From Erysipelotrichaceae bacterium (lineage in GTDB: Bacteria; Bacillota_I; Bacilli_A; RFN20; CAG-826): 64,000 nucleotides of DNA. The notes under the pieces are model-generated. The model saw only the letters and a program-made list of their open reading frames with translations, was not told the origin of the DNA and searched no databases. Location: positions 759 through 64,758 of the forward strand of contig SVBE01000007.1 of NCBI GenBank assembly GCA_015059065.1, written 5' to 3'. Shown piece after piece: positions 1 to 52,707 of this stretch. Position 1 is the first letter of the stretch. Every line of letters begins with the position of its first letter. A program made the position numbers and the translations under genes.

Positions 1-2
1 TG

Positions 3-914: not shown

Positions 915-919
915 TATAG

Positions 920-2032
920 CTATTTATGCTTATTGATCTCTTTTAACTCATTACGTGTTTTATCGTGTTGTTTAAAAAGTCCTCGGAACAATCTGAATGT
1001 CCAAGCGATAGGAATTAATATATGATGTTTGTACGCCCACGGATAAAGGATTTTATATTCTGTTACAGGCGGGAAGATACGAGAGAATATATATTTAAGC
1101 CTTCCTTTATTTTTAACACCTTTTTCAACCTTATTTCCTAATGTTCCGTACGTACTAGAAGAAGCAATATATAATAAGATGTCCTTCTCATTATCATCTA
1201 ACTCTTTATTAGAGAACAATTTAATAGATAAAGAATTAATCTCTTTAGAGAATTCTAATAATTCTAATTTCTCTAATTCTTTATCAATATAATCAATATT
1301 TAATTTATTGTTTTTTATGAATACATAGCAATCAATTAAATTTCTAAGCCCGCATCCGGCATTTTGATAATGCTTATGCAAATGTGCAATGTAATAAATG
1401 TAAAAATCTTCATTAGATAAATAATGTTCGTGGTCACTTTTTATTGGAGATCGTTCTAATAAACCTTCATAATAAGGAACCAACAATTCAAATTCTTTTA
1501 TGTGTTCAAACAAATAACGATGCATTTCAAAGTTATAAAAAGGGTCTTTCAAGTAAACATCATCTTTATCTACATCGTATGACTTAACTTTATACCCCCT
1601 ATCCGCAAAGAACCGTTTTACTAATTCTTTTTTACTGTCATCAAAAAGGATATCGTTGTCCGCGAATTCCCTTGTCGCGGGATCAGGATAATAATCTTTG
1701 ATGATGATGCCTTTTAAAGGCAGATAATCTATCTTGTTATCATTTAGGTATTTATATAATTCATTTCTCTCTTTATCAAAAAGCACTGTTTTACGGACAT
1801 TTGATAAATATGCTTCTTCTAATCTTGGTAGATATTCTTTATTGATCTTTATACCTGTATCTACTATAGCCTTATATAACAATGCTGATAAAGAATGGAA
1901 TTTAGAAAATTTGATGTAGAATGATAACTGTTTATCATCAATATCCATATCATCTAATTTCTCATTATTTAGATATGATGATAGTAGATGGATATAATCA
2001 TATAGATATTTGTTAAATACTTCTTTATCCAT
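920..2032 (-). CDS. Nucleotidyltransferase family protein (PF14907/NTP_transf_5-like); last gene of the PqqD/HprK-like cassette
   Basis: 370 aa. The segment LPLKGIIIKDYYPDPATREFADNDILFD fits the KG...Y.P...R...D.D.L signature of the 'uncharacterised nucleotidyltransferase' family that co-occurs with PqqD/HprK-like genes. It lies 5 nt downstream of the ABC gene. Confidence 0.65.
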   Translation of the reverse strand: MDKEVFNKYLYDYIHLLSSYLNNEKLDDMDIDDKQLSFYIKFSKFHSLSALLYKAIVDTGIKINKEYLPRLEEAYLSNVRKTVLFDKERNELYKYLNDNKIDYLPLKGIIIKDYYPDPATREFADNDILFDDSKKELVKRFFADRGYKVKSYDVDKDDVYLKDPFYNFEMHRYLFEHIKEFELLVPYYEGLLERSPIKSDHEHYLSNEDFYIYYIAHLHKHYQNAGCGLRNLIDCYVFIKNNKLNIDYIDKELEKLELLEFSKEINSLSIKLFSNKELDDNEKDILLYIASSSTYGTLGNKVEKGVKNKGRLKYIFSRIFPPVTEYKILYPWAYKHHILIPIAWTFRLFRGLFKQHDKTRNELKEINKHK

Positions 2033-2037
2033 AACAT

Positions 2038-3678
2038 CTATTCGCCTAAATCAATCACTTTATCAAAAAGTTTATCATCATATTTATGATGTGATATCAA
2101 TATGATAGTTCTATCACTTAAAGATAATATATTGTTCATCACTTTCTTTTCTGTTGATTCATCAAGAGATGCACTGCATTCGTCTAATAATAGGATTGGG
2201 GAAGAAGAATATATTGCTCTTGCAATCGCGATTCTTTCCATCTCTCCTAAAGATAATCCACTGCCTTTGACATTAAGGACTGTGTTTTCTTTATCATTTA
2301 ATTTATTGATGAAATCATATGATTCAGATATATGTAATGAACTGTTGAATAACTGTTCATCAACATCATTATCATATAATGTGATCACATCTTTAATTCT
2401 ACCTTCCATCAATAAATTATCTTGAGGGACATAGGCAAATAATCTTTCATATCTTTTAGATAATGGTTCACCGTTAATTAATATCTCTCCGTCATCAGGT
2501 TTAATTAAAGATAATAATAATTTAAATAAAGTAGTCTTTCCTCCCCCAGAATGACCTTTAATCAATATCTTGTCATTCTTATTAATTGTTAATGATAAAT
2601 CTTTAATCGCTTCAACTTTATGATCATATTTATCAAGATATGAATATGAGATATGCTTTATCTCAATACTATTAAATTCACCTCGATAATATTGATCAAT
2701 CTCACTCTTAGATAGATAAGATATATCATCATCTCTATCTATCATTATTCTCTCTCCAGATGCGATTAATGAATAATATCTTGGTATGATATTAGTGATA
2801 TTCCCTAATGGTCCTGTTAACTGAGTTAATAAAGCGATTAAGGCGGTTAATAGACCAATAGTCATATTGTTATCAAGGATCGCTCTTCCGCAGAAGATAA
2901 TGGCTAATATATAGAAAGAATAATAAACAACAATATATCCAATCGAGCAAGCGATAGAGAAGAGATTCCTCTTCATCCTCGCTTTCTTATAGTTAGATAA
3001 ATTATCTTCATTCTTTTTAGAAAAGATATCTTCTTTAACAAAGCTATGAATGATAGATAAGCCCTGTAAAGATTCAAAGAAGAAGATCTTGACCTTACCG
3101 TCCTCTTCTTGCATCTTTTTATGATATAGCTTAAGTCTCTTTCTAAGTAGATAAGTAAGAAGGATTACAAATACGATAGAAGGTAATAAAGATAAACCAA
3201 ATATTGGATATAGATAGATGATCGCCGCGATAGCAAGTACAAGCTGGACTACCATACGACATAAAGAAGGTAAGATGGAAAGAATGGATGATGATATCAC
3301 TGATACATCACTAGTGAGTCTATGTATCCATTCTTCATCATGAATCTTTTTAATCTCACTGTAGTCTTTGGATAATATGGTTTTATATAGATTATCTTTT
3401 AATTTGTTCTCGATATCGACATAACAATATTCATAATAGATGCGATAGAAGATTTGTAGTCCTACAAGTAATAAAGCAATAGAAGACATCGCTATCACAT
3501 AGATGATAAATAAATCATTATTCTTCTCTTCTAATGACGATATTAAAAAGCGAAGCATAAAAGAGAACGCTACTGTTAATGTCCCTAATATTATCTGAAT
3601 AATAGAAAGAAGAACAATCTTTCTTTTATTGCCCTTGATATTATTAGAGATGAAATGTAGCACTTCTTTATTCTTCAT
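2038..3678 (-). CDS. ABC transporter, fused permease + ATP-binding protein (exporter type, no C39 peptidase domain)
   Basis: 546 aa. An N-terminal ~6-TM domain is followed by Walker A GHSGGGKTT, signature LSLGEMERIAIARA and Walker B ILLLDECSASLD. It overlaps the upstream peptidase gene by 4 nt. Confidence 0.9.
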   Translation of the reverse strand: MKNKEVLHFISNNIKGNKRKIVLLSIIQIILGTLTVAFSFMLRFLISSLEEKNNDLFIIYVIAMSSIALLLVGLQIFYRIYYEYCYVDIENKLKDNLYKTILSKDYSEIKKIHDEEWIHRLTSDVSVISSSILSILPSLCRMVVQLVLAIAAIIYLYPIFGLSLLPSIVFVILLTYLLRKRLKLYHKKMQEEDGKVKIFFFESLQGLSIIHSFVKEDIFSKKNEDNLSNYKKARMKRNLFSIACSIGYIVVYYSFYILAIIFCGRAILDNNMTIGLLTALIALLTQLTGPLGNITNIIPRYYSLIASGERIMIDRDDDISYLSKSEIDQYYRGEFNSIEIKHISYSYLDKYDHKVEAIKDLSLTINKNDKILIKGHSGGGKTTLFKLLLSLIKPDDGEILINGEPLSKRYERLFAYVPQDNLLMEGRIKDVITLYDNDVDEQLFNSSLHISESYDFINKLNDKENTVLNVKGSGLSLGEMERIAIARAIYSSSPILLLDECSASLDESTEKKVMNNILSLSDRTIILISHHKYDDKLFDKVIDLGE

Positions 3679-4100
3679 TTAACTCTCCTCAGATGGAGTT
3701 TAGATAATAGATATTGTATCGGCATCCTGATATAGATGAAATTAGAGTAGAAGAACTTTCTCATCTTCTTGTCTTTATTTAGATTAATTACTCTTCCATC
3801 CTTCTTTCTAATTTCAATTAATTTACCTAATAATAAAGATCGATCAATCTTCTTATCAATAAAATAATTATAATCCCCTGCCGTAACGATAATATTATCT
3901 TTTATTTTAATAATGCGATGGAGGATATATTTATCATTATATTTATATAGAACGATATCACCTTTATGATATATATCAGTCTTTATGATATATAAGATAT
4001 CCTCTCTTTGACGAATGAGAGGATACATCGAAAACCCTACATTCGTGAAATATAGTTCTCCGTCTTTATCTAATACATCTTCAAATTTACTTAATGGCAT
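3675..4100 (-). CDS. S24/S26 (LexA/signal-peptidase-like) serine peptidase family protein
   Basis: 141 aa. GFSMYPLI matches the G-x-S-M-x-P nucleophile motif. It is followed by GDIVLY and ILHRIIKIK, which could supply the Lys general base. It overlaps both flanking genes. Confidence 0.6.
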   Translation of the reverse strand: MPLSKFEDVLDKDGELYFTNVGFSMYPLIRQREDILYIIKTDIYHKGDIVLYKYNDKYILHRIIKIKDNIIVTAGDYNYFIDKKIDRSLLLGKLIEIRKKDGRVINLNKDKKMRKFFYSNFIYIRMPIQYLLSKLHLRRVK

Positions 4101-4374
4101 TGATCTCTCTTAATTTATTCACAAAATCATTCACTGATTGATTGATAAGGTCTTTATCTTCATCTGGATAAGAATTATAGAAATGAGATAATAATTCATC
4201 CATCGTTAAATCATTATCATCAAGGAGATGAACAATCTCACTTCCCGTTTCATTAAGCTTAATAATTCCATGGAATGATTTGCTCTCTTCTTCTACTGGG
4301 ACTAGTATCTCCCCAGAAGAAGTCTTATGAATCAAAAAATTATTGTTCAGTCTCATATCTAATAATCCTTTCAT
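4087..4374 (-). CDS. PqqD family protein (RiPP-recognition-element-like peptide chaperone)
   Basis: 95 aa. The pattern ...GEILVPVEEESKSFHGIIKLNETGSEIVHLLDDNDLTMDELLSHFYNSYP...DLINQSVNDFVNKLREINAI matches the PqqD family layout (beta strands, L-N-x-T/S-G, winged helix). The start could instead be the Met at 4356. Confidence 0.7.
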   Translation of the reverse strand: MKGLLDMRLNNNFLIHKTSSGEILVPVEEESKSFHGIIKLNETGSEIVHLLDDNDLTMDELLSHFYNSYPDEDKDLINQSVNDFVNKLREINAIK

Positions 4375-5065
4375 ATGTCATCTTCGCGGCATCTATATCC
4401 ATATTGACATTAATATTATAGAAATTAATTTCTTCTAATATTATATCAATGATCTTAAGAGCCTTTTCTCTTTTATCTTTACCAGTTGGTAAATATATCT
4501 GAGATAAGAGATTAGTATATATATTGTCTTTATTATTTATCTTCTTATAACTATTCTCTATCCCCCGATTAAGGAATATCACAGTAGAAAGAGGGGCAGA
4601 TATATTATTCCCCCTTCTTTCTTTCCCGTTCCACGGGGAAGAATAAATAACGATATCATCCCCTACTTCAAGTAAAGGCTTATCATCATTGATATAAATA
4701 AATTTATCTCCTAATAATTCAGATAATAATCTAGCATGTGTTGTTTTACCTGTACCACTTCTTGCTGCGAGAAGAAAAGCATAACCATTCACCATAAAAG
4801 AAGAAGAATGGAACACGACGATATTATGATCAACAAGGATATCTGCAATCTTTCTATATAAGGCTGATATCTCTTCATTAACATAAACCTTACCATCACT
4901 TTGATAAGTAGTTTCAGCTTTTAAATCATCCTCAGTTAATGTAATTAGATAATCCGCTTTAACATCATCATCCACAAGATAATCTTTACAGTATCTTTTA
5001 GTCGTCATATTAAAAGCATTTATCTCAAATACATATCTTACTAGTTTTATTTTGAAATTAACCAT
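4340..5065 (-). CDS. HPr kinase C-terminal-like (HprK-related) P-loop protein; first gene of the cassette
   Basis: 241 aa. FHSSSFMVNGYAFLLAARSGTGKTTHARLL matches the H-(G/S)-S-x-h-x4-G-x-A-x-L-h-x-G-x-S-G-x-G-K-(S/T)-T block of HprK-related kinases found in RiPP and HPr-rel-A loci. There is no Shine-Dalgarno (SD) sequence upstream. Confidence 0.6.
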   Translation of the reverse strand: MVNFKIKLVRYVFEINAFNMTTKRYCKDYLVDDDVKADYLITLTEDDLKAETTYQSDGKVYVNEEISALYRKIADILVDHNIVVFHSSSFMVNGYAFLLAARSGTGKTTHARLLSELLGDKFIYINDDKPLLEVGDDIVIYSSPWNGKERRGNNISAPLSTVIFLNRGIENSYKKINNKDNIYTNLLSQIYLPTGKDKREKALKIIDIILEEINFYNINVNMDIDAAKMTYERIIRYETEQ

Positions 5066-5079
5066 AACTATATGGGTCT

Positions 5080-5108
5080 ATTATACATTTTTGTATAACT
5101 CTTGAGAA
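5080..5108 (-). promoter_or_regulatory. Candidate sigma-70-type promoter of the cassette (TTCTCA-17 nt-TATAAT)
   Basis: On the minus strand the -35 TTCTCA is at 5108-5103 and the -10 TATAAT at 5085-5080, with a 17-nt spacer. The -10 ends 14 nt before the ATG at 5065 and no SD intervenes. This implies a very short-leader or leaderless mRNA. Confidence 0.4.
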
Positions 5109-5245
5109 TAACAACCCAATATTCACCCGTGGGAACATATAGTTCGGACGAAGAGTCATCTACATCCTCAGAAGAACAGGCAAGTTCTGAGATGGAGGTT
5201 GATAGTGATGATGAAACAGGGTGGAGTCCAATAATTTGGTTCTAG
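5099..5245 (+). pseudogene. Remnant of the 3' end of a Ser/Glu-rich lipoprotein gene (paralogue of 9608-10186)
   Basis: The open frame after the TAA at 5096 reads ...YSPVGTYSSDEESSTSSEEQASSEMEVDSDDETGWSPIIWF*. This parallels the acidic S/E-rich tract and the ...DSDSGWGSIRWPD* C-terminus of 9608-10186. It occupies the equivalent position upstream of a small peptide gene. It has no signal peptide, lipobox or repeat domain. Confidence 0.35.
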
Positions 5246-5247
5246 CA

Positions 5248-5274
5248 GTACAAGAGTTTTAGGAGGAATTGTAC
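5248..5274 (+). promoter_or_regulatory. 6-bp stem (GTACAA/TTGTAC) enclosing the Shine-Dalgarno (SD) sequence, abutting the ATG of the 45-aa peptide gene
   Basis: 5248-5253 pairs with 5269-5274. The 15-nt loop contains AGGAGG. The same geometry, with a different sequence, occurs at 9588-9613. Confidence 0.4.
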
Positions 5275-5412
5275 ATGGGAGAAAAGAAAAAGAAGTTTAT
5301 TATACCAGAAGCTGAACTGGTTGATTTCACAAATGATGACATCATCACAACTAGTGTTGGTACAGACCAATTACAATGGGGTGATGGTGGTGCCAATACG
5401 GATGATTTCTAG
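5275..5412 (+). CDS. Unannotated 45-aa peptide (conserved K-rich F-x-x-P-E-x-E...NDDIIT-x-S N-terminus, acidic Trp/Gly C-terminus)
   Basis: The sequence is MGEKKKKFIIPEAELVDFTNDDIITTSVGTDQLQWGDGGANTDDF*. AGGAGG (5261-5266) lies 8 nt upstream of the ATG. The stop TAG overlaps the SD of the next gene, whose ATG follows 13 nt later. 19 of the 27 N-terminal residues are identical to the paralogue at 9441-9587. It is absent from the ORF track because it is under 60 aa. Confidence 0.75.
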   Translation: MGEKKKKFIIPEAELVDFTNDDIITTSVGTDQLQWGDGGANTDDF

Positions 5413-5425
5413 GAGGTAGTTTGAG

Positions 5426-7492
5426 ATGAAAAGAAAATTATTATTAGGAATACTTCCAGTTTTAATGAGTTTGTCCGCATGTGGAGGTGCAAACCAAAAA
5501 GCAAATGATTATTTCCAAGAAGACGCTTTGCTTCATGAAGAAATCTTTGGATCTGTTGAGAGCGCAATAGAATCAAAAGCATTTCGCAACCTTGATCCAA
5601 TTGGCCCAGCAGTTCCATTAATTGGTGTTCAACAACAAACATATACAGATTCAAGAGATTCTAAGCAATATCTTGCTGTTAGGTTTGTTGCTGTTGTCAA
5701 TCTTCCAGATTTATCAACAACCATTAAATGGGATAGAGGTATATACGAAGATGATGGAGACTGTCATAAAGCATTTGATAAGCCATTAGTAGCTACAACG
5801 GTATATGAATCTATTTATGATGGTAGCAGTTTAGTCAACATTTCAGCTTATGAAGGGTATACACATTTTGCAACATATACAGTCAGAAAAATACCAACAA
5901 ATAAGACAGGCTATTTTATCAAAGCATCATTAACTATTGGCAATGGCGAGCCTAGTAAGCAATATGCAACATCTGTTGATTTAACTAAGCAGGTTTCATT
6001 TAAGTTTAACACACCATATTCAGGATATTTCTTACAAGGAAAACGCGGTGAAGAACCAAACGCTACCACTTATGCTGACGACGGTGAAATCCCTGCTGGT
6101 AATCAAGCTCGTTTTACTACTTCTTTAGCAGCAAGTGACAACTTCTTTGTTGTTTATAATTATGAAGGTGCTACACCAGAAGAATCTAAATTTAAAATTC
6201 TTGGTTCTGAAATTTTAACTGGTAGTGAATACGCTAATATATTCTTTGAAGACACAGAAGGAACTAGTGCAAAGATTAATGTTAAAGCATCAAATGACTA
6301 TGTCTTATATTTAGATAATAGTAATATCTTACAATCAGATGAAATACATACAACAGCTATCGCTTTACAACATGGCGGTGTTGCTTGTTCTTCTGCTGAT
6401 TTATATCTCGGATTAGACGAAGATGCAACTTTTGAATTAACTGCAGTCACTACTCCAGCTGTGGTATCCGATAATGTAACTTGGGAATCTAGTGATACGA
6501 ACGTTGTTACTGTTTCAAACGGAACAGTTGCTCGTGTTGGTGCAGGAACAGCAACGGTCACAGCAACATCTAATGGCCAAACAGCAACATGTGCTTTCAC
6601 TGTACATAAAGTTTATGAAGGTGCAGTATATAGATCTGATGTTAAAGTTGGATCGTTTGATTTTGGCGAAGGTGCTGACAAAGGAGATTATACCGAATAT
6701 GCCTCATTGGTAAGCACCGTTAATACTGATGACATTATTATAATGTATAAAAATGGCGTGCAAATTTATCCAGGTGCATCTAATTCGGATGGAAACCTAG
6801 AGTATAATAATGAACATTTATTAAGAGTAAAAGATGGCGGTGCCAACTTAAGCTTATACCTCAAAGACTATGGGTCAGGTTATGATACATGGTTTGATAA
6901 TCCAGTATATACGATTAATAGATCTGCGAGCGGTGTCCGTACATTATGGTTCAAGTCAGCTACAAACGAATGGTGTGGAACCCCAGCCGTTTTTAAAGCT
7001 GGTGAATCATTCAGTGCTTATGATAAATGTGGCAACTTGTTAGAATATGGTCCAGACGAATGGTCGTTTGGAACAAAGGATTCTTACAAGTCCTACATTT
7101 CATATAATGATGGTGTTTATACCGCACTTAAAGATTTTGAAGTAGATGTTTATGTAAAGATTGACCAAAAAATCATATATTTCGGTACTCAGTATCCTTA
7201 TTATTTCTTATCAGGTTCATTTAATTCATGGGCTTACCAAGATAGCAATTATAAATTGGTCATAACCGATAATGCTGAATATAAGTTAGCTTTTAGCGTT
7301 TCAAAATCAGAAACATTCAAAGTTACTTCTGATAGTGATTCGCCAACTTGGTACCCTGATGGTAAAGATAATAACTACTCAATTGACTCAGAAGGCAATT
7401 ATATCATCTACTTTGACCCAAATAAAAGAACTGATCAAGGTTGGTATTATGATTATTTCTATGTGCAAAAAGTAGTTACAAGTAACTCATAA
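5426..7492 (+). CDS. Large surface lipoprotein with a Big_2 (bacterial Ig-like) domain; paralogue of 7582-9426
   Basis: The signal and lipobox are MKRKLLLGILPVLMSLSAC-GG. The N-terminal ~250 aa align with 7582-9426 (HEEIFG, PLIGVQ, RFVAVV, YEDDGD, GYFL.G, ARFTTSL..DNF.VVYN). A Big_2-like segment ATFELTAVTTPAVVSDNVTWESSDTNVVTVSNGTVARVGAGTATVTATSNGQTATCAFTV lies at about 6424-6610. The C-terminal GSFNSW-type module may be glycan-binding. Confidence 0.85.
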   Translation: MKRKLLLGILPVLMSLSACGGANQKANDYFQEDALLHEEIFGSVESAIESKAFRNLDPIGPAVPLIGVQQQTYTDSRDSKQYLAVRFVAVVNLPDLSTTIKWDRGIYEDDGDCHKAFDKPLVATTVYESIYDGSSLVNISAYEGYTHFATYTVRKIPTNKTGYFIKASLTIGNGEPSKQYATSVDLTKQVSFKFNTPYSGYFLQGKRGEEPNATTYADDGEIPAGNQARFTTSLAASDNFFVVYNYEGATPEESKFKILGSEILTGSEYANIFFEDTEGTSAKINVKASNDYVLYLDNSNILQSDEIHTTAIALQHGGVACSSADLYLGLDEDATFELTAVTTPAVVSDNVTWESSDTNVVTVSNGTVARVGAGTATVTATSNGQTATCAFTVHKVYEGAVYRSDVKVGSFDFGEGADKGDYTEYASLVSTVNTDDIIIMYKNGVQIYPGASNSDGNLEYNNEHLLRVKDGGANLSLYLKDYGSGYDTWFDNPVYTINRSASGVRTLWFKSATNEWCGTPAVFKAGESFSAYDKCGNLLEYGPDEWSFGTKDSYKSYISYNDGVYTALKDFEVDVYVKIDQKIIYFGTQYPYYFLSGSFNSWAYQDSNYKLVITDNAEYKLAFSVSKSETFKVTSDSDSPTWYPDGKDNNYSIDSEGNYIIYFDPNKRTDQGWYYDYFYVQKVVTSNS

Positions 7493-7511
7493 TATCGTAT
7501 TGAAAACAATT

Positions 7512-7545
7512 AAAAGGACCTCGCGTCGTTTGCGAAGTCCTTTTT
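7512..7545. terminator. Bidirectional rho-independent terminator between the convergent lipoprotein genes
   Basis: AAAAGGACCTCGC (7512-7524) pairs with GCGAAGTCCTTTT (7532-7544) with one C.A mismatch and a 7-nt loop. There is an A-run on one side and a T-run on the other. Confidence 0.7.
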
Positions 7546-7581
7546 ATAATTTGTTTTTAGAGATTAATATGTTTGTTTGAT

Positions 7582-9426
7582 TTATTCTGCAGGTGTTTCT
7601 GGGGCAACATATACATAATGACCTATTTTCTGTGCCCAATCAGCGCTTTCATCATACCAAACATAAAAACCATTTGTTGTGATATCGCTCAAACTAATAT
7701 TGCTCGTTTGAATAGAATATGAATTCTTGCTGCCGTTAAAAATAATATAGTCATATGTGTTAAAATCTACATTGTCTAATTTGTAAACGGCTTGATCAAA
7801 CTCATTATAGTGATCGACCGTCATAGCGATTCCTGGCCACTCTGCGTTCTTAACTTCAGGGTTTGCATCTGCTTTCCAGGCATACAAATTAACATTTGAC
7901 CAGCCATCTGAGTTAGTAAAGTAAACAGTAATTGAACTTGTAATAATAGGACCGCTTACATATAATTTATAACTTTTGTTCACATAGAATGTATGAGTCC
8001 CGCTTTCTAACGCGACATAAGATTTGCTACTACCACAATCTGGGAATTCGAGAATAACGTCATACCCTCTAATAAACGCAATTCTTTCGCCTTTTTCTAA
8101 AGGTATCTCATACTGGGCAATATTGTTGTCGGTATCTTCAACTTCAACAGAATAACTATCTAGATTTATTGATTTACCACCTTTGGTAGCGGATAAATCT
8201 GTTGGATAATCCAGCCACAACGCATAACTTACATAATCATATGTTTTAAACCATAACCCAAGATTTGATCCTCCGTTAACTATGTAACCCGATTCATTAA
8301 TGTTTGCTCCTTCATCTGGAGTAATAGAAGCAGTTGATATTACATTGCCATCATATGAGAAAATCAATTGAGTGTTGGTCTTAGGAGAAATGTTAACGTT
8401 AAAATTCTTTAGATTATTATTACCAAAACCCCAAAATGGTAAAGGAATCGTGTTAGATGAGCTATCATTAGCCGTATACGTTAATGTAAATCCTGTTTCG
8501 ACATCGATTTCACCACTGTTATTAAGATAAAAAACATAATCACGGGTTGTCCATGTTTTTATTTTCGTTGTAGACCCATCATCTTTAAAGAAATATGGAT
8601 TGGTGCTAAGACAGTTAGAATCATAAACGATAAACTTAGATTCGCCTAATGTATTAACATCGTGATTATACACAAGATAGAAATTATCTTCAGAAGTGAG
8701 CGATGTTGTAAAACGAGCTACTTTACCATCTGGTAAAGGGTTAGTGTCATAGTCATCATCTTCACCCAACACTTCTCCTGGCTCACCACCTATTTGTCCT
8801 TTAAGGAAATAACCAGTCTGTTCAGCAGGGAATAAAAACTGTTTTGATTGGTCAACCAATGTTGCCAACATGTCAGTTTTAACGCCATTAAGAGTTAAAT
8901 ACGCGTTTAAAAAATAATCTTTGTAAGTAGTTTTGGGGATATTAAGTATTGTATAAGCCAAGAAATGAGTATAGCCAGACGCCTCTGCTAAACCTTGTTC
9001 TTCGTCGAATGCAGACATATCGTACTCAACGTTGTTGTTGTAAACACTAGTATAAGCTTTTGTGCACTCGATTACTGCTTTTTCTTGTCCGTTTACCACA
9101 AACACATCACCGTCTTCATCATACATTCTTCTAGTCCAAGAAGCGGACGTAGATGTTAAATCAGTTAATTTAACAGCAGCAATAAACCTAAGAGAAATTT
9201 TACCATCTGCTTCTTTTGTTTGAACACCAATTGTCGGAACGCCTGGATACCCTGGATTGATTGCATTCTTACGAACCTTCTTTAATCCGTCTTGGATGTT
9301 GCCAAAAATTTCTTCATGGGCTAATGTGTCTTCGTGGAATAATCCGTTTTCGACTTGTGGTTGGGCTCCTGCGCAAGATCCTAAGAGCATTAAAGCAGGA
9401 ACCAAAGTTAATAATAATTTCTTCAT
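7582..9426 (-). CDS. Large surface lipoprotein, paralogue of 5426-7492, with a C-terminal CBM25/26-like module
   Basis: The signal and lipobox are MKKLLLTLVPALMLLGSC-AG. It shares its N-terminal domain with 5426-7492. The C-terminal ITVYFTNSDGWSNVNLYAWKADANPEVKNAEWPGIAMT...YIIFNG (about 7600-7935) matches the VYF..W..V..Y.W......WPG..M pattern of starch-binding CBM25/26 modules. Confidence 0.85.
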   Translation of the reverse strand: MKKLLLTLVPALMLLGSCAGAQPQVENGLFHEDTLAHEEIFGNIQDGLKKVRKNAINPGYPGVPTIGVQTKEADGKISLRFIAAVKLTDLTSTSASWTRRMYDEDGDVFVVNGQEKAVIECTKAYTSVYNNNVEYDMSAFDEEQGLAEASGYTHFLAYTILNIPKTTYKDYFLNAYLTLNGVKTDMLATLVDQSKQFLFPAEQTGYFLKGQIGGEPGEVLGEDDDYDTNPLPDGKVARFTTSLTSEDNFYLVYNHDVNTLGESKFIVYDSNCLSTNPYFFKDDGSTTKIKTWTTRDYVFYLNNSGEIDVETGFTLTYTANDSSSNTIPLPFWGFGNNNLKNFNVNISPKTNTQLIFSYDGNVISTASITPDEGANINESGYIVNGGSNLGLWFKTYDYVSYALWLDYPTDLSATKGGKSINLDSYSVEVEDTDNNIAQYEIPLEKGERIAFIRGYDVILEFPDCGSSKSYVALESGTHTFYVNKSYKLYVSGPIITSSITVYFTNSDGWSNVNLYAWKADANPEVKNAEWPGIAMTVDHYNEFDQAVYKLDNVDFNTYDYIIFNGSKNSYSIQTSNISLSDITTNGFYVWYDESADWAQKIGHYVYVAPETPAE

Positions 9427-9440
9427 ATATTTTCTCCTAC

Positions 9441-9587
9441 TTATTCTCCAAATGTCTCACCGTCTTCGTCAGTCCAACCGGCGTTACCTTGAGCTTCAGC
9501 TAAACCTGACCCCGTTATAATGTCATCGTTTTTAAAATCGAATATTTCTAATTCTGGTTTTAAAAACTTCTTTTTCTTTTCCTCCAT
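9441..9587 (-). CDS. Unannotated 48-aa peptide, paralogue of 5275-5412
   Basis: The sequence is MEEKKKKFLKPELEIFDFKNDDIITGSGLAEAQGNAGWTDEDGETFGE*. The ORF track lists it as a 64-aa ORF (to 9635), but the extra 16 codons overlap the upstream gene. GGAGG (9604-9600) precedes the ATG at 9587. The stop lies 14 nt before the lipoprotein ATG, and AGGAG sits between them. Confidence 0.75.
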   Translation of the reverse strand: MEEKKKKFLKPELEIFDFKNDDIITGSGLAEAQGNAGWTDEDGETFGE

Positions 9588-9613
9588 GATTAAGATTTTC
9601 CTCCATGTTAATC
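9588..9613 (-). promoter_or_regulatory. 6-bp stem (GATTAA/TTAATC) enclosing the SD, abutting the ATG of the 48-aa peptide gene
   Basis: In minus-strand sense the sequence is GATTAA-catggaggaaaatc-TTAATC-ATG, with a 14-nt loop containing GGAGG. The left arm includes the TAA stop of 9608-10186. It is the structural counterpart of 5248-5274. Confidence 0.4.
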
Positions 9614-10186
9614 TGGCCATCGGATTGAGCCCCATCCACTGTCGCTATCTTTCTCAACAGCGTAATATGTTGCTGTTACCGTTAGGTCTGAGGTTACCGA
9701 TGAACAATCCTTATCCCATCCTTTAAATGTATAAGAGACAGTATCAGTTCCCTCTCTTGTAGGTGTGTCGCCTACATATATTGCATTACCGCCTTCACCA
9801 ACATCCGTTTCATATAACGTAGTTCCATCATAGTTTTGGAAAGTTACATGATATGCTACTGGTGTTGACTCACTCGAATCCTCTGTGTAGGAACTATATG
9901 TTCGCTCGGGGTCTGAAGAACTGATTTCTTCGACTGAGGATTCCTCTTCCTCACTTGAAGAGATAGGTTCATCGGAAGAATATTCAATTTCACTAGAACT
10001 TGACGTTTCTATGCTGAATTCTTCCCCTTCATCAGAGCTTATAGTCTCTATCGATGATTGAGTGGACATATTCGTTGTCGTGTTACTGGTAGTAGATAAT
10101 TCACTAGAAGTAGTATTACCACTACCACAGGATGCTAAAGAAAATATTGCGAACAAAACAAAAGTAACGCTTAAAGCTTTTTTCAC
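9608..10186 (-). CDS. Ser/Thr/Glu-rich lipoprotein with one Listeria-Bacteroides (Flg_new / InlB B-repeat-like) domain
   Basis: The start is GTG with GGGGGAAA upstream. The lipobox is FSLASC-GSG. A ~90-aa S/T/E low-complexity linker follows. The C-terminal YHVTFQNYDGTTLYETDVGEGGNAIYVGDTPTREGTDTVSYTFKGWDKD...TVTATY is typical of the Flg_new repeat. Confidence 0.8.
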   Translation of the reverse strand: MKKALSVTFVLFAIFSLASCGSGNTTSSELSTTSNTTTNMSTQSSIETISSDEGEEFSIETSSSSEIEYSSDEPISSSEEEESSVEEISSSDPERTYSSYTEDSSESTPVAYHVTFQNYDGTTLYETDVGEGGNAIYVGDTPTREGTDTVSYTFKGWDKDCSSVTSDLTVTATYYAVEKDSDSGWGSIRWPD

Positions 10187-10315
10187 TTCTTTCCCCCAAT
10201 CCTGTTTCTTATCATGACACGAATATGCATGTGCGTTGCACTATTAATATATATTATATTATTACAAATCTAGGAAAAATAGGAAAAAATAATAAATGTA
10301 GTATAAATAATCAAT

Positions 10316-11734
10316 CTACTCTTTGTTTTTGCCAAGTAAATAAGCGTATGCTAATGCAGGTATACGATATAATTTAGTACCATTTCTATCAAATAGACCA
10401 AAATCATCAACTTCTTTGCTAACTACATATCCTGGCACATCTTTCATGCCATAGACGATAATACCGTCACTATCCTTGATATGAGCCTTGTGTCGATATT
10501 TAGCCTCAACATACTGGATATCTCTACCATTTTCCTGGATAATAATATCAATCTCTTGCCCTTTGTCATTCCTAATATAACCGACATTATATAATTCGTT
10601 ATCAACCGATAAGAAATAATCTCTCGTGTGTTTTAATGATACGGTTTCAATAGCCATACCAAGTTCATTATCATCGGTAACGATATCGTTAATGCGTGTT
10701 ACTGCACATCTAACACCATAATCAGATATGTATATTTTTCTTTTTGGTTTCAACGCTTTTTTGCCACTAGCGTCAAGCTGATCAGAGATATAGATGAGAT
10801 TAGCTTTTTCTAAAGCATCGATATAAAGGTTGCATGTGCTTCGATCAATACCAATGCTACTAGAAATAGTCTCAATCTTTATAATGTCGCCACTATGATA
10901 ACAGAAATAGGCGTAGAGATTAGCCAAAGCATCAACATCTCTAATAGGATGGGAACTAGGAATATCCTGTCGAATAGCTTTGCTCACCACTTGATCACGG
11001 ATAAGACGAGAAACATAATTATAGTCCTCGCTCAAAGCATATTCTGGAAATCCGCCTAAACGAAGATAGCGATAAAACTCACTATTAAGAGTGGCTATAT
11101 TGTTATAAATCATCGTTTGTTCATCAAGAGGCAAAGCATGAAGTTTGAATACATCAACATTAGGAAGATTTAAATGTTTGCCATTAATTTCACAAAATTC
11201 ATAGAAAGAAAAAGTCGGTATTTTGATCGTCAAAAATCTGGCAGCCCCAGATTCACCGCTATCTCTTTCAATTTCTACAGAAGAAGAGCCACTAATCATT
11301 ACTAAGCATTTCTTATTGAGGTCATATATCTCTTTGACATAACTTTTCCAAGTCTTATCTTTTTGAGCCTCATCAATGAATAGATAATAATCTTGATCTG
11401 GATAGACAAACTTTTGATACACCCTCACCACTTCTTTGATGGTTACATTATCGTTTGGAAAATCATCAAGGGTGTAAAACAATATTCTCGATGGCTTAAC
11501 TCCTTCGCTTAATAATTCATCAATTATTTGAAACATAATAGTTGATTTACCAACACGTCTAGGACCAGAAAGAACAGGGAAGCGTCTAATCTTATTAAAG
11601 AAAACATACTTCACTCTTTTATATTCATTACGCTTAAAAGATGGAGCTAGTTCTGTATCAACTTTGCCAGTAATCCACCACCTATTTTGCTCCTGAATAT
11701 TTCTTAATATTAATTGTTCTTCATTCATCACCAT
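10316..11734 (-). CDS. AAA ATPase, AAA_14 + DUF4143 type (orphan)
   Basis: 472 aa. It has Walker A GPRRVGKST and Walker B YLFIDEAQ. The C-terminal region has the DUF4143-like layout. It is monocistronic. Confidence 0.8.
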   Translation of the reverse strand: MVMNEEQLILRNIQEQNRWWITGKVDTELAPSFKRNEYKRVKYVFFNKIRRFPVLSGPRRVGKSTIMFQIIDELLSEGVKPSRILFYTLDDFPNDNVTIKEVVRVYQKFVYPDQDYYLFIDEAQKDKTWKSYVKEIYDLNKKCLVMISGSSSVEIERDSGESGAARFLTIKIPTFSFYEFCEINGKHLNLPNVDVFKLHALPLDEQTMIYNNIATLNSEFYRYLRLGGFPEYALSEDYNYVSRLIRDQVVSKAIRQDIPSSHPIRDVDALANLYAYFCYHSGDIIKIETISSSIGIDRSTCNLYIDALEKANLIYISDQLDASGKKALKPKRKIYISDYGVRCAVTRINDIVTDDNELGMAIETVSLKHTRDYFLSVDNELYNVGYIRNDKGQEIDIIIQENGRDIQYVEAKYRHKAHIKDSDGIIVYGMKDVPGYVVSKEVDDFGLFDRNGTKLYRIPALAYAYLLGKNKE

Positions 11735-11785
11735 TGGATCCCGCCTCTAGCACTTTAATTGTAATTTAATAGAGAAAGAAATCAA

Positions 11786-11847
11786 GGAAAATGTAGATTA
11801 TATTCAGCATTTTATATATGGAAAATGTAGATTACATTCCACATTTT
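11786..11847. repeat. Two 28-bp direct repeats (25/28 identical, 34-bp period), each with an internal AAAATGT...(A/G)CATTTT inverted repeat
   Basis: The repeats are GGAAAATGTAGATTATATTCAGCATTTT (11786-11813) and GGAAAATGTAGATTACATTCCACATTTT (11820-11847). They sit between the stop of 11848-12396 and the start of the DUF4143 ATPase gene. Confidence 0.6.
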
Positions 11848-12396
11848 CTAATAATGATATCTTTCTCTTTGCTTTTTGATGACATCTGTATGGATAATCG
11901 CAGATGACACTAATCCGACAAATACACCAGTGATGATCGCAGATAAACCAATCACAGGAAGATATAAAACAACATATGATGTTCCTAAATATATCATCGC
12001 TACTAATATTTGACCGATGACATGGGCTAATGCACCTAATACAGATACGCCTATAATAGAAAACTTCCTAATTAATAAATAAAAGATAATCATTACTAAT
12101 AAGGATAAGAACGCACCTGATAGAGACATTAAAAAGCCATATGACATAAATGTCCCTCTCACTAGTCCCACTACTACGACACGGATAAGATTAACGATAA
12201 TCGCATCTAATATCCCTAGTTCATATAGAGTCACTAGTATCACAATATTCGCGAGGCCTAATTTGATACCAGGAATGCCGATAGAAGGGATGAATGATTC
12301 TAATATGGCTATCACTACTGCTCCCGCGGTTAAAACGCCTAATAAGGCAATCTTATGAACGTTAAAAGTTGATGACTTCTTATTTTCTTCCATCAT
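11848..12396 (-). CDS. Gx transporter family membrane protein (heptaprenyl-diphosphate-synthase-component-I-like, PF07456)
   Basis: 182 aa with 5-6 TM helices. The position downstream of a NusG-II-domain gene and apbE is the usual arrangement for this family in Firmicutes. Confidence 0.65.
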   Translation of the reverse strand: MMEENKKSSTFNVHKIALLGVLTAGAVVIAILESFIPSIGIPGIKLGLANIVILVTLYELGILDAIIVNLIRVVVVGLVRGTFMSYGFLMSLSGAFLSLLVMIIFYLLIRKFSIIGVSVLGALAHVIGQILVAMIYLGTSYVVLYLPVIGLSAIITGVFVGLVSSAIIHTDVIKKQRERYHY

Positions 12397-12770
12397 CCTA
12401 ACTCCACATCATAATTAGACTGTCCTTCTATCACGATATATACCGCGTTATACGCGCATATAATCGGATGATTAGACTCTTTTATATACCCCATCTTTAC
12501 ACAGTCTTGATGAGGGCAGTTTGATTCGATAATCGCGATCGCCCCATCTTTGCTGTGGACATGTACTTCACCTTTAAGACCTTTGATATAAAAGTCCTTC
12601 TCTTCATTACGAGATAAATCAACTTTCTCTACCACATTATTCTGTACTGATATACTGGCAACTAAATTAGTTCTATTCGCATTGACATTGATAATAACTA
12701 AAGAAACAACTGTAATGAGAAGCAAAGAAACAACAAGGATGATATCATTACGTAATTTCTTCTTATCCAT
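12393..12770 (-). CDS. NusG domain II-containing membrane-anchored protein (DUF1312)
   Basis: 125 aa. An N-terminal TM is followed by ...IIESNCPHQDCVKMGYIKESNHPIICAYNAVYIVIEG, which fits the C-P-x-x-x-C...G-W/Y-I...I-x-C-x-P-N pattern of this family. It has 4-nt and 8-nt overlaps with its neighbours. Confidence 0.7.
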   Translation of the reverse strand: MDKKKLRNDIILVVSLLLITVVSLVIINVNANRTNLVASISVQNNVVEKVDLSRNEEKDFYIKGLKGEVHVHSKDGAIAIIESNCPHQDCVKMGYIKESNHPIICAYNAVYIVIEGQSNYDVELG

Positions 12771-13710
12771 GATAAAGTTCTAACCATTCATTGCAGTAGA
12801 TGACTTGTCTATTACGTACCACGACAGTTTTTACATTCTGTTTCTTTTCTATTTCTTTGATTTCATCCACTGTATTCATCATCATCGATGTGGATAATGC
12901 GTCTCCAATATAGCCTAAAGAAGATACCACTATTACTGCGTCATTAATATTGATCGCTGATCCATCAAGAGGATTGATGATATGGGAATAAGTAATATCC
13001 CCAATCTTCACCCCTTGGACGGATTTAGATGAGGTGGTGATAAAACAATTTTGTAATTTGATATAGGCATTATCTAAATCAGATATCTTTACTGTAAAAT
13101 ATCCATCACTAGTATCTTTCTTACCTAATAAGATAGAAGAGAATCCGGCATTGATTAAATATTTCTCAATATGTTTATTAGATAGATATTCTTTTATCTT
13201 ATCTAAGGAATAGCCTTTCACTATTCCTCCTAAATCAATCTCCGCTTCTCCTTTTTTAGAGATGATATAATCATCATCAAATATTAATGAAGAATTATTA
13301 ATCTTCTCTAATTCACTATTAATCACATCAGTTGATAATAATTCATTCTTTCCTAATGCTTCTTTCCATTTCTTCGAAAGAGAGCCACATAAAGGATTAA
13401 AATATGTCGCGCCTAAGTTAGAGACATCCACTGATGTTTTTAATAAATCATATAACTCTTGTTCTACTTTAATAGGAGAAGTAGATATATTCCTAATAGT
13501 GATTCCTTCTCTAACGTTATAGTTATCAGACACCCTATCGTAATAAAGTAAGATATCTCTAATATCATCTAAATTAGATTGATCCCCTTCATATAACTGA
13601 GATATCACTGTCGTATCAAAACAAAAAATCCTGTTCTCAATAGGGACTCTATTAACGGAACAAGATGTTAAGGTTGTAATTAATAATATTGGGAATAATT
13701 TCTTGCTCAT
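12763..13710 (-). CDS. apbE: FAD:protein FMN transferase (ApbE family) lipoprotein
   Basis: 315 aa with lipobox LTSC-SV. It has the ApbE-like layout (FDT.V......, IDLGGIVKGYSLDK, GDALSTS). It lies next to its expected substrates RnfG and RnfD. Confidence 0.85.
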   Translation of the reverse strand: MSKKLFPILLITTLTSCSVNRVPIENRIFCFDTTVISQLYEGDQSNLDDIRDILLYYDRVSDNYNVREGITIRNISTSPIKVEQELYDLLKTSVDVSNLGATYFNPLCGSLSKKWKEALGKNELLSTDVINSELEKINNSSLIFDDDYIISKKGEAEIDLGGIVKGYSLDKIKEYLSNKHIEKYLINAGFSSILLGKKDTSDGYFTVKISDLDNAYIKLQNCFITTSSKSVQGVKIGDITYSHIINPLDGSAININDAVIVVSSLGYIGDALSTSMMMNTVDEIKEIEKKQNVKTVVVRNRQVIYCNEWLELYHG

Positions 13711-13711
13711 A

Positions 13712-14029
13712 TTATAGATGGGCTTTTATTTTACTACCATCCTCGTTTGGATGAGAATCAAGATATTCTAAAATCGGTTTAAAGTTATTATCTTCTTTGC
13801 CAGGTTTACATTTTCTTAAATTAGTTTCTTCACCTTTAATGATCGCTTCTGCCATATCATGACAACCCGCATAGCCACATGAACCGCAGTTATAATTAGG
13901 AAGTCTTTTTGCCACTTCTTCAATTCTTTCATCTTCTTTTACATGTAATACCTTCGCGGCAATCGCGAGTCCTAAACCTAAAAGAAGTCCTAAACCTAAT
14001 AAGATAAGTATCGCCCATAATATTTCCAT
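13712..14029 (-). CDS. rnfB: Rnf complex subunit B, minimal form (N-terminal TM + single Cys-cluster domain only)
   Basis: 105 aa. The N-terminal TM MEILWAILILLGLGLLLGLGLAIAA is followed by NCGSCGYAGCHDMAEAI...C, the RnfB N-terminal Fe-S motif. No ferredoxin-type CxxCxxCxxxCP domains follow. Confidence 0.7.
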   Translation of the reverse strand: MEILWAILILLGLGLLLGLGLAIAAKVLHVKEDERIEEVAKRLPNYNCGSCGYAGCHDMAEAIIKGEETNLRKCKPGKEDNNFKPILEYLDSHPNEDGSKIKAHL

Positions 14030-14031
14030 AA

Positions 14032-14226
14032 TTATTCACTCTCCTTATCTCGATTAAATTGACAGGTATGATTGCTGCATGATGCACATTTTTCTTCACT
14101 AGCGACAATATCTTCACATCCTTTAGGAACAGGTGTTCTACGATATATCACAAAAGAAACCATAAAGATGATAAGTAATCCGACAAGAATAGATATCGCA
14201 ATAATTAAATAACCGGTCTGACTCAT
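14032..14226 (-). CDS. Small single-pass Cys-rich membrane protein inserted between rnfA and rnfB
   Basis: 64 aa. It has one TM, then RR (positive-inside), then C-x10-C-x2-C-x4-C (CEDIVASEEKCASCSNHTC). Gaps to both neighbours are 2 nt, so it is probably co-translated with the operon. Confidence 0.5.
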   Translation of the reverse strand: MSQTGYLIIAISILVGLLIIFMVSFVIYRRTPVPKGCEDIVASEEKCASCSNHTCQFNRDKESE

Positions 14227-14228
14227 AA

Positions 14229-14834
14229 TTATTTAATCACTCCCGTAAATAATCCTTGTAAGCCCATCATGGCAATCGCCATAATCGCGGCAGTAATAAG
14301 TGCAATTGGTAAACCTTTAAAGGCTTTAGGAGTATTCGCACTTTCTAGTCTCACTCTAATACAAGAGAAAGTGACGATGATAAGAAGGAAGCCAATTGAT
14401 GTCCCTAAGCCGTTTGCAATGGCTTGAAGGAAATCAAGTCCTTGATCTGTATTACCTTGAGCAACACCTAAAACCGCACAGTTAGTAGTGATAAGCGGTA
14501 AATAAATACCTAAAGACTTATATAAAGAAGGAGAATATTTCTTAATGAAAAGACCCACTAATTGGACTAAAGAAGCAATCACTAAGATATAAGCCACTGT
14601 ATCTAAGAATGGAATACCAGCAGGAACAAGAATGAAATGATATAAAGGCCAACAGATTAAAGTCGCTAAAAGAATAACAAAGACAACGGCAATACCCATG
14701 CCTAAAGAAGACTTCACCTTCTTAGAAACACCTAAGAATGGACAGATGCCGTAGAAACGCGAAAGGACAACGTTATCAATTAACATTGAAGAAACAATCG
14801 CAAGAAGGAAAGAAACAATGCCTTGCATCACCAT
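14229..14834 (-). CDS. rnfA: Rnf electron transport complex subunit A
   Basis: 201 aa and polytopic. It carries the NVVLSRFYGICPFLGVSKK and TNCAVLG motifs typical of RnfA/NqrE. Confidence 0.9.
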   Translation of the reverse strand: MVMQGIVSFLLAIVSSMLIDNVVLSRFYGICPFLGVSKKVKSSLGMGIAVVFVILLATLICWPLYHFILVPAGIPFLDTVAYILVIASLVQLVGLFIKKYSPSLYKSLGIYLPLITTNCAVLGVAQGNTDQGLDFLQAIANGLGTSIGFLLIIVTFSCIRVRLESANTPKAFKGLPIALITAAIMAIAMMGLQGLFTGVIK

Positions 14835-52503: not shown

Positions 52504-52707
52504 ATGACGTACGTTTCCTTTCAATTTTGTGATTACCACTTTAAAAAGTGGACCAATTGACAAGAAAAAAATATCAAAAAAAACATATGAAATAAATAAT
52601 TTATTAATGGAATTATACTTTTTTTACATAGATGTAACTCAGTAGTTCACTTTTATTGAAACTAAATGCATTTTGCTTCTGCAATAATAAATGATTTTTT
52701 TCTACCC

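Follow-up and report, generated by a model that had tools for sequence, protein, structure and literature searches.

Candidate precursor peptides of a divergent LPP type and a neighbouring K-B-S-D-N operon in a rumen Erysipelotrichaceae contig

The closest described relatives of the locus reported here are the linear polyphosphorylated peptides (LPPs), a type of peptide made by the ribosome and modified after translation (RiPP), described from about 130 clusters, mostly in Bacillus and Paenibacillus (Popov et al., Nat Commun 2026, PMC13381572). LPP clusters, cloned in the order lppA-K-B-S-D-N, encode the HprK-like LppK, a discrete RiPP recognition element (RRE), LppB, an archaeal-type (SipW-like) peptidase resembling signal peptidase I (SpI), LppS, the MsbA-like LppD and the nucleoside triphosphate (NTP) transferase LppN; they lack a cyclase and often lie in capsule loci (PMC13381572). 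Following expression of the Paenibacillus alginolyticus cluster in B. subtilis, LppK was seen to place up to four phosphates on core Ser3 of LppA, and LppS to cut after Thr-1 in a process that requires LppB and in which leader residues F-3, E-2, T-1 and L-10 matter; the unphosphorylated precursor was poorly cleaved, LppN had no detectable effect, and the final product and role were not established by these authors (PMC13381572). Here we analyse two short peptide genes, copy 1 (5275-5412) and copy 2 (9441-9587), in a 64,000-nucleotide stretch of an Erysipelotrichaceae bacterium genome (assembly GCA_015059065.1, contig SVBE01000007.1, positions 759 to 64,758), hereafter the window. The evidence, above all the operon beside copy 1, supports both peptides as RiPP precursors of a divergent LPP type, and we consider it probable that copy 2 in particular is a precursor processed by that operon.

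A short gene with a conserved leader and a variable tail

Copy 2 runs on the reverse strand from an ATG at 9587 to a stop codon at 9441 and encodes MEEKKKKFLKPELEIFDFKNDDIITGSGLAEAQGNAGWTDEDGETFGE (48 aa). Its elements, and the observations on which each assignment rests, are as follows.

9441..9587 (-): lppA-like precursor peptide gene, copy 2, 48 codons plus stop; translation, family hidden Markov model match at E = 6.5e-22, and a ratio of non-synonymous to synonymous rates (dN/dS) of 0.085 against its orthologue in the related contig L001
9600..9604 (-): Shine-Dalgarno (SD) sequence GGAGG, 12 nt before the ATG at 9587; all four of its closest relatives keep the 12-nt spacing
9513..9587 (-): predicted leader, codons 1-25 (MEEKKKKFLKPELEIFDFKNDDIIT); conservation, with a putative adaptor-binding motif FxxPxL and a putative I-I-T cleavage motif
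9444..9512 (-): predicted core, codons 26-48 (GSGLAEAQGNAGWTDEDGETFGE), net charge about -6; hypervariable acidic, Gly/Trp-rich tail, with a putative boundary
9507..9509 (-): Ser27 codon, predicted phospho-acceptor; Ser in 244 of 248 family members and analogy with the polyphosphorylated Ser3 of LppA

Mechanical ORF calling extends this gene to 9441..9635 (-), a 64-aa product that begins 28 nt within the preceding lipoprotein gene (9608..10186, reverse strand). A previous sequence-only reading of the window had noticed that the first 16 codons of this open reading frame (ORF) overlap, in another frame, the 3' end of that Ser/Glu-rich lipoprotein gene, and had placed the true start at the internal Met at 9587, preceded by GGAGG. 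Both observations were confirmed, and the 48-aa peptide was recovered exactly as quoted there. Six-frame translation of the relatives' contigs revealed a stop codon 1-8 codons before the equivalent Met in homologues, the motif M-x-x-K-K-K-[F/Y] opens all family members, and an SD sequence lies 7-12 nt upstream of the Met in 18 of 19 family genes. These features support 9587 as the start in preference to 9635 or 9620. The last of these corresponds to the public record, a 59-aa 'hypothetical protein E7181_03300, Erysipelotrichaceae bacterium' retrieved in a protein search, which is over-extended too; six relatives returned by the same search begin at the MEEKK Met. Gene callers mis-start or miss such genes.

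The same reading had drawn attention to an 11-mer, ATGGAGGAAAA, said to occur twice at a distance of 20 nt and to supply first the SD sequence and then the start codon. Both copies are present, at 9606 and 9587, with a start-to-start spacing of 19 nt, not 20. Shuffling of the window yielded an expectation of 0.11 copies, and two or more copies in 1 of 100 shuffles. In the closest relatives the SD context reads ACGGAGGACA and the repeat is not conserved. Because it arises from the SD sequence GGAGGA and the codons ATG-GAG-GAA-AA, and is not kept in relatives, we considered the repeat incidental and rejected it as a feature.

The L001 orthologue of copy 2 is 85% identical in amino acid sequence, with a dN of 0.089 and a dS of about 1.05, which is near saturation. 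Splitting the comparison into leader (codons 1-27) and tail, a division that the sequence-only reading had proposed for the two window copies, resulted in dN/dS values of 0.05 and 0.14, respectively; both parts are under purifying selection, on small counts. The same leader compared between the two window paralogues gave a dN of 0.24 and a dS of 2.3. The ORF from 9587 to 9441 is hence a genuine gene. Searches of the Pfam and NCBIfam libraries returned no match for either window peptide, and an Rfam scan of positions 4800-10400 identified no RNA family.

The existence of two copies with divergent cores had been taken to argue for a functional family, and the comparative searches are in full agreement. 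A seven-sequence profile searched against 1.84 billion cluster representatives (E<=1e-3) identified 753 clusters at 50% identity, the best 150 of which encode peptides of 32-69 aa, and a word-indexed search with a 55-sequence profile identified 2601 clusters at 90% identity. Among the best 120 of the latter none is informatively named, and most are metagenome-derived. Within the window, copies 1 and 2 have 19 of their 27 N-terminal residues in common and their tails are unalignable, as expected of the divergent-core copies that had been described.

The leader of the family conforms to the consensus M-(D/E)-KKK-[F/Y]-x-x-P-E-[A/L]-E-[IV]-[IV]-x-F-x-x-[DE]-D-I-I-T-x-S, in which I-I-T-x-S is essentially invariant and keeps a constant spacing from the Pro. 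The pattern [FYW]xxPx[LVIFA] was detected in 235 of 249 members and P-x11-[ILVM]-[ILVNM]-T in 215 of 249, and a Ser follows at the second residue after the Thr; the aromatic residue at P-3 is Phe in 144 members and Tyr in 65. The tail is hypervariable and has a median length of 18 residues and a mean net charge of -4.4; Gly makes up 19% of its residues, Asp and Glu together 26%, and Trp 6%. An aromatic residue occurs among the last six tail positions in 205 of 248 members, and only 4 of 248 tails contain at least two Cys residues. In 32 of 209 members the core contains no Ser or Thr apart from the conserved Ser; this, together with the analogy with Ser3 of LppA, points to Ser27 as the putative phospho-acceptor of copy 2. 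The predicted 23-aa core of copy 2 has a computed monoisotopic mass (M) of 2296.94, with successive phospho-forms starting at 2376.90 and 2456.87.

The K-B-S-D-N operon and its association with family peptides

Copy 1 diverges from a five-gene operon that occupies the minus strand from 5065 down to 920 and presents the same gene order as lppK-B-S-D-N.

5275..5412 (+): copy 1 of the precursor peptide gene, 45 codons; transcribed away from the kinase gene, at a distance of 210 nt
4340..5065 (-): lppK-like P-loop protein with a predicted HPr-kinase/phosphoenolpyruvate carboxykinase (PEPCK) fold, 241 aa (Pfam ScmC-type); AlphaFold2 model and Foldseek, with weak ScmC/HPrK sequence matches
4087..4374 (-): lppB-like discrete RRE of the PqqD family, 95 aa; Pfam PqqD, E = 4.9e-10
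3675..4100 (-): lppS-like archaeal-type signal peptidase I homologue, predicted leader peptidase; Peptidase_S24, E = 2e-4, and sigpep_I_arch, E = 1.2e-9
2038..3678 (-): lppD-like MsbA-type ABC exporter with no C39 peptidase domain; ABC_membrane and ABC_tran, with MsbA-type NCBIfam matches
920..2032 (-): lppN-like nucleotidyltransferase, NTP_transf_5; Pfam PF14907, E = 4.6e-39

Profile searches with the kinase against the sequences of solved structures returned only P-loop matches, with HPrK at an E-value of about 0.7, and a comparison of folds was therefore needed. The AlphaFold2 model (predicted local distance difference test, pLDDT, 90.1) matched only ATP-dependent PEPCK and HPr kinase/phosphorylase (HPrK/P) in Foldseek searches against the PDB (E-values from 1e-6 to 1e-4), and the modelled structure of the 4340-5065 protein is accordingly that of the HPrK/PEPCK kinase fold. 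It has 869 close homologues; PF27840 is carried by homologues, and its relatives match the Pfam ScmC model and, faintly, Hpr_kinase_C; the window protein itself scores 13.6 bits against the ScmC model, for which the curated cut-off is 125 bits. The peptidase is 32% identical to Bacillus LppS (E = 4e-15) and retains Ser24 (SMYP), His61 (HR) and Asp82, the last equated by motif comparison with the catalytic Asp mutated in Popov et al. (PMC13381572). Neither an Asn-synthetase-like cyclase, nor a transglutaminase-like B2 protease, nor a radical-SAM enzyme was detected in the operon or in the ten other large window ORFs scanned, and the flanks of the operon in related contigs L001, L010, L015, L019 and L022 were likewise devoid of lasso cyclase and B2. 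A gene encoding a Wzy_C (O-antigen-ligase-like) membrane protein at 12-914 (+) abuts the NTP_transf_5 gene, as it does in L001, L015 and L023.

A peptide of this family adjoins the operon in the window and in contigs L001, L010, L015, L019, L021/L022 and L023. L001 and L015 repeat the layout of the window, in which the operon is accompanied by two convergent cassettes, each comprising a small Ser/Glu-rich lipoprotein, the peptide and a large lipoprotein. In L010 the peptide gene lies on the same strand, 72 nt upstream of the kinase gene; in L021/L022 it also precedes the kinase on the same strand, with a gene for a 444-aa lipoprotein in between, and in L019 two genes for endonuclease-type surface proteins separate the last peptide gene from the kinase gene. 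The K-B-S-D-N order is kept in all seven related contigs long enough to test.

This association was examined more widely by anchoring the analysis on the kinase in metagenome contigs. A family peptide was present in 21 of the 48 contigs encoding a kinase at least 50% identical to that of the window, frequently at some 70-120 nt ahead of that gene, and in 14 of the 27 such contigs whose sequence extends 1 kb or more upstream of the kinase. Family peptides were also detected beside operons with kinases only about 30% identical (L096, L097, L099). The long contigs L049 and L051 have the operon and no peptide within 10 kb.

Two further observations were made on the related operons. A gene encoding a Fic-domain protein, absent from the window, lies between the S and D genes in L010 (15026-15928), L019 (16840-17742), L022 (3726-4646), L044 and L058. 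In L010, a terminator-like hairpin (GACGGAGTCAACTACTCCGTTTTTATTT; 13495-13525) is located directly 3' of the precursor gene that precedes the kinase gene. A terminator following the precursor gene is a common feature of RiPP operons.

A scheme for the processing of copy 2 can be outlined by analogy with LppA, LppK, LppB and LppS of P. alginolyticus (PMC13381572), which provide the model for its chemistry, cleavage site and acceptor Ser. The discrete PqqD-type adaptor (4087-4374) would bind the leader (F8-x-x-P11-x-L13 ... I-I-T), Ser27 would be phosphorylated, probably several times, by the HPr-kinase-fold enzyme (4340-5065), and the signal-peptidase homologue (3675-4100) would remove the leader, most likely after Thr25, which places I23 at the hydrophobic -3 position. 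The NTP_transf_5 enzyme (920-2032) may decorate the phosphate further, and the MsbA-like exporter (2038-3678) would export the short and very acidic core. As regards the specific residues, we rate the chances that Thr25 and Ser27 are the actual cleavage site and acceptor as about even. Cleavage after Ser27, with T-x-S read as a -3/-1 signal-peptidase site, was considered first, with a computed core mass of 2152.88, and is now judged less likely than cleavage after Thr25, given that LppS cuts after Thr-1 and depends on hydrophobicity at position -3.

Several lines of evidence weigh against this assignment. Of the 27 contigs with a closely related kinase and 1 kb or more of sequence before it, 13 showed no peptide, L017 encodes a peptide without the operon within 10 kb, and copy 2 itself is separated from the operon by 4.4 kb and belongs to another transcription unit, together with lipoprotein genes. 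The same leader also accompanies radical-SAM enzymes, and the leader alone hence does not fix the chemistry. Furthermore, the LPP leader motif Px9Fx[T/A] (YxxPxVLxHQxIxFETxxS) occurs in none of the 249 family members, which instead present Px11-I-I-T, with a spacer two residues longer; the conserved Ser is at +2 in the window family and at +3 in LPPs; and the aromatic residue of the motif is Phe in copy 2 and in about two thirds of the family, whereas LppB fixes the hydroxyl of a leader Tyr by a hydrogen bond (PMC13381572). BLASTP detected no similarity between the window adaptor and one cluster-1 LppB; the adaptor is closest (29% identity) to the RREs accompanying SpI cluster 4 (Dehalobacter, Lachnospiraceae), the precursors of which were entered as 'ND' by Popov et al. 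(PMC13381572). The peptidase is about equally similar (about 32%, 50-55 bits) to SpI clusters 1, 6, 8 and 9, and falls below the 1e-23 edge cut-off, which puts it outside the core cluster of that study.

Surface-protein context and competing explanations

Both peptide genes are embedded among genes for surface lipoproteins, in a region that differs between strains.

9608..10186 (-): Ser/Glu-rich lipoprotein gene, 192 aa; its end lies 20 nt ahead of the copy 2 start, both genes being in one transcription unit, with a weak Flg_new match
7582..9426 (-): large lipoprotein gene, 614 aa, with a C-terminal CBM26; 14 nt downstream of copy 2
5426..7492 (+): large lipoprotein gene, 688 aa, with Big_2; 13 nt downstream of copy 1
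7512..7544 (no strand): bidirectional terminator hairpin between the two convergent cassettes
5146..9698 (no strand): strain-variable cassette containing both peptide genes and both large lipoprotein genes; blastn of the window against L023

The sequence-only reading had assigned both copies to the same syntenic slot, after a Ser/Glu-rich lipoprotein gene and before a large one. The downstream half of this arrangement holds for both copies, and the stop codon of copy 2 does lie 14 nt before the ATG (9426) of the 614-aa lipoprotein gene, which has an AGGAG of its own. The upstream half holds for copy 2 only: what precedes copy 1, at 5102-5245 (+), is a 47-codon remnant of a Ser/Glu-rich lipoprotein gene, ending in ...GWSPIIWF. 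This remnant (...SSDEESSTSSEEQASSEMEVDSDDETGWSPIIWF) lacks both the signal peptide and the repeat domain, and the signal peptide of its L001 counterpart (5522-5995) is truncated too. The small lipoproteins encoded before peptide genes (9608-10186 in the window; also in L001, L014, L021 and L033) have a common C-terminal domain resembling Listeria-Bacteroides repeats and end in a conserved G-W-[GS]-[PS]-I-x-W, just ahead of the peptide SD sequence. The 688-aa and 614-aa lipoproteins have in common a 300-aa N-terminal domain (39% identity), for which structure prediction from a two-sequence alignment gave a pLDDT of 38.6.

Precursor genes of the family almost always sit directly behind a gene for a large secreted protein or lipoprotein: 27 of 36 family genes follow a same-strand ORF of at least 80 aa that ends no more than 60 nt upstream. 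In the clade of the window, the peptide gene is often followed, within 20 nt, by a gene for a lipoprotein with the common 300-aa N-terminal domain.

Comparison with L023, a rumen contig with a kinase 98% identical to that of the window, defined the limits of the variable region. The flanks (window positions 2-5145 and 9699-15625) are 92-95% identical, and window positions 5146-9698 are replaced in L023 (5928-9920) by unrelated or divergent sequence, with different peptide cores. Its right-hand limit lies within the Ser/Glu-rich lipoprotein gene, some 30 codons before that gene ends. In L001 the kinase is only 68% identical to that of the window, yet the peptide is 85% identical to copy 2. Taken together, these two patterns indicate that the cassettes are moved or retained irrespective of the operon. 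The coupling to surface-protein genes and the replacement of the cassette between near-identical strains provide testable leads to function.

These observations could be extended to the proposal that LPP-type precursors in this rumen and gut lineage, rather than being stand-alone genes for natural products, are parts of strain-specific surface modules, each of them co-transcribed with a surface protein or lipoprotein, with the exported, phosphorylated and acidic peptide acting on or with these proteins as a ligand, decoration or recognition tag and the cassette being exchanged as a unit. We deem this extension rather unlikely; if true, it would provide a first functional context for the LPP family, with kin-recognition or conflict loci as a parallel.

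The same context gives rise to the alternative that comes closest to the preferred one, namely that the peptide is a ligand, surface decoration or maturation partner of the flanking lipoproteins, that the K-B-S-D-N operon contributes only maturation and export, and that the cassette is a strain-specific surface module. The position of 27 of 36 genes closely behind a same-strand ORF, many of them then followed within 20 nt by a lipoprotein gene, would be accounted for in this manner, as would the common transcription unit of peptide and lipoprotein genes, which ends at the 7512-7544 terminator, the swapping of 5146-9698 between strains with near-identical flanks, and the recurrence of the arrangement in L001, L002, L010, L014, L015, L019, L021, L030, L032, L033 and L047. 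The cores, however, do not strictly co-vary with either flanking protein, which leaves a specific partnership between peptide and lipoprotein as only a possibility: the L015 lipoprotein is homologous to the 614-aa one over its full length (41% identity) but accompanies a different core, and the cores of copy 2 and of peptide L001a are 81% identical while the corresponding lipoproteins are alike only in their N-terminal 300 aa. In addition, many family peptide genes immediately precede the kinase gene and are followed by no lipoprotein gene, and the linkage could also reflect shared high expression or a shared variable island. We therefore regard this explanation as unlikely.

The processing of copy 2 by the adjacent operon must also be weighed against that of a paeninodin-type lasso precursor, whose leader would be bound by B1 and cut two residues after the Thr, and whose core would be cyclised to a lariat and phosphorylated. 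The first half of the copy 2 leader, FLKPELEIFDF, is nearly the same as the WLKPELEVLDV of PbaA, the lasso precursor co-resident in P. alginolyticus (reconstructed here from primers), and is closer to it than to LppA (LYARPMVLSQQ). PDB searches, made with the adaptor and also with the peptide profile, missed the LppB-LppA complex, and the only match that they returned, a weak one, was to the leader of fusilassin. Given a core that starts at the invariant Ser, the Thr would occupy position -2, and HPr-kinase and NTP_transf_5 proteins are typical tailoring enzymes of Firmicute lasso clusters. The lasso enzymes themselves, though, are missing from every sequence scanned, namely the operon, the ten other large window ORFs and the flanks of the five related contigs, and an SpI-type peptidase stands in the place of B2. 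Moreover, under either numbering, the window cores (S-G-L-A-E-A-Q-G-N and S-V-G-T-D-Q-L-Q-W) have no Asp or Glu at positions 7-9, and the 103 of 209 family members with an acidic residue there are what composition alone would produce by chance. A lasso precursor is thus highly improbable.

Even less probable is a radical-SAM-modified precursor of the sactipeptide or ranthipeptide kind, encoded in a SynChlorMet-type cassette. Family members with Cys-rich cores (P0136 and the second L013 peptide) do occur in clusters that combine a ScmC-like kinase, PqqD, radical-SAM and C39-ABC proteins; L076 (9464-18685) combines a radical-SAM gene with S24, kinase and NTP_transf_5 genes, and the window kinase matches the ScmC model. 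Nevertheless, neither window core contains Cys, in keeping with the rarity of tails with at least two Cys residues, and the operon and the other ORFs scanned encode no such enzyme. Clusters of this kind, in which Cys-rich and distantly related peptides (e.g. MKKEFKKPSLEVITFKNEDIITTSGGGGCSPQCQNVCIPNCEVVG) with the same leader accompany ScmC-like kinase, PqqD, radical-SAM and C39-ABC genes, were located at L011 237-2836 and L013 317-3341. The trio of leader, adaptor and kinase-fold protein is a module shared across chemistries.

Lastly, a non-functional or chance ORF, or a regulatory upstream ORF coupling lipoprotein translation, might be suspected from a short gene in a tight gap between lipoprotein genes, annotated as hypothetical and without Pfam or NCBIfam match, but is scarcely tenable in view of thousands of homologues with a leader conserved at the amino acid level, a dN/dS of about 0.09 with saturated synonymous change, the repeated co-location with an RRE-containing operon and the negative Rfam scan.

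Outside the variable region, two genes for ATPases were observed at 10316-11734 (-) (AAA_14 and DUF4143), directly upstream of the lipoprotein-peptide transcription unit, and at 52708-54081 (-) (ATPase_2, AAA_14 and DUF234). A single very large ORF, 4764 codons long and starting with TTG, occupies 38269-52563 (-).

Comparison with known systems

The locus combines features of three described systems. With the lasso clusters of Firmicutes (paeninodin, pseudomycoidin) it shares a discrete PqqD-type protein equivalent to B1, an HPr-kinase homologue with a precursor Ser as its (here predicted) target, an NTP_transf_5 protein, an ABC exporter and an almost identical first half of the leader (KPELEV/I..D). 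It differs from them in having an SpI-type serine peptidase and in lacking the cyclase, B2, the acidic residue at 7-9 and a conserved C-terminal Ser. Likewise, the SynChlorMet-type cassettes pair a kinase-fold protein matching the ScmC model with a PqqD adaptor, and some relatives of the peptide family sit in clusters with ScmC-like, PqqD and radical-SAM genes; the window differs in that its scans revealed no radical-SAM gene, its cores have no Cys and its ScmC score is far below the cut-off.

The resemblance to the LPPs is more extensive. The five accessory genes occur in identical order and without a cyclase, the precursors number one to three and are conserved at the N-terminus and hypervariable at the C-terminus, and the leader presents an aromatic-xx-P-x-hydrophobic motif followed by hydrophobic-x-Thr and a conserved Ser nearby. 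The Wzy_C neighbour in the window is of polysaccharide type, and echoes the published link to polysaccharide loci. In addition to the departures in leader, adaptor and peptidase described above, the cores of the window family are short (about 20 aa), acidic and Trp-rich, whereas the Bacillus examples have long, basic cores in which Gly, His and Pro abound, and the window precursor genes lie dispersed, on either strand, between genes for surface lipoproteins. The host also belongs to a rumen Erysipelotrichaceae lineage outside the dataset of Popov et al., the supplements of which list neither Erysipelotrichaceae nor any '...DIIT...' peptide (PMC13381572).

Since the LPP motif is absent, adaptor and peptidase fall outside the core group, and core and leader differ, the locus is a divergent variant lineage of the already described LPP type, not a canonical member. 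As such, it suggests that the LPP-type enzyme set serves a far larger and unannotated peptide family of rumen and gut Bacillota, comprising the 2601 clusters identified here. It also supplies candidate precursors for an SpI/RRE lineage in which the survey of Popov et al. found none, and its differing leader, in which Phe replaces Tyr and the spacer is lengthened, is relevant to the way in which RREs tell leaders apart, the theme of that work (PMC13381572).

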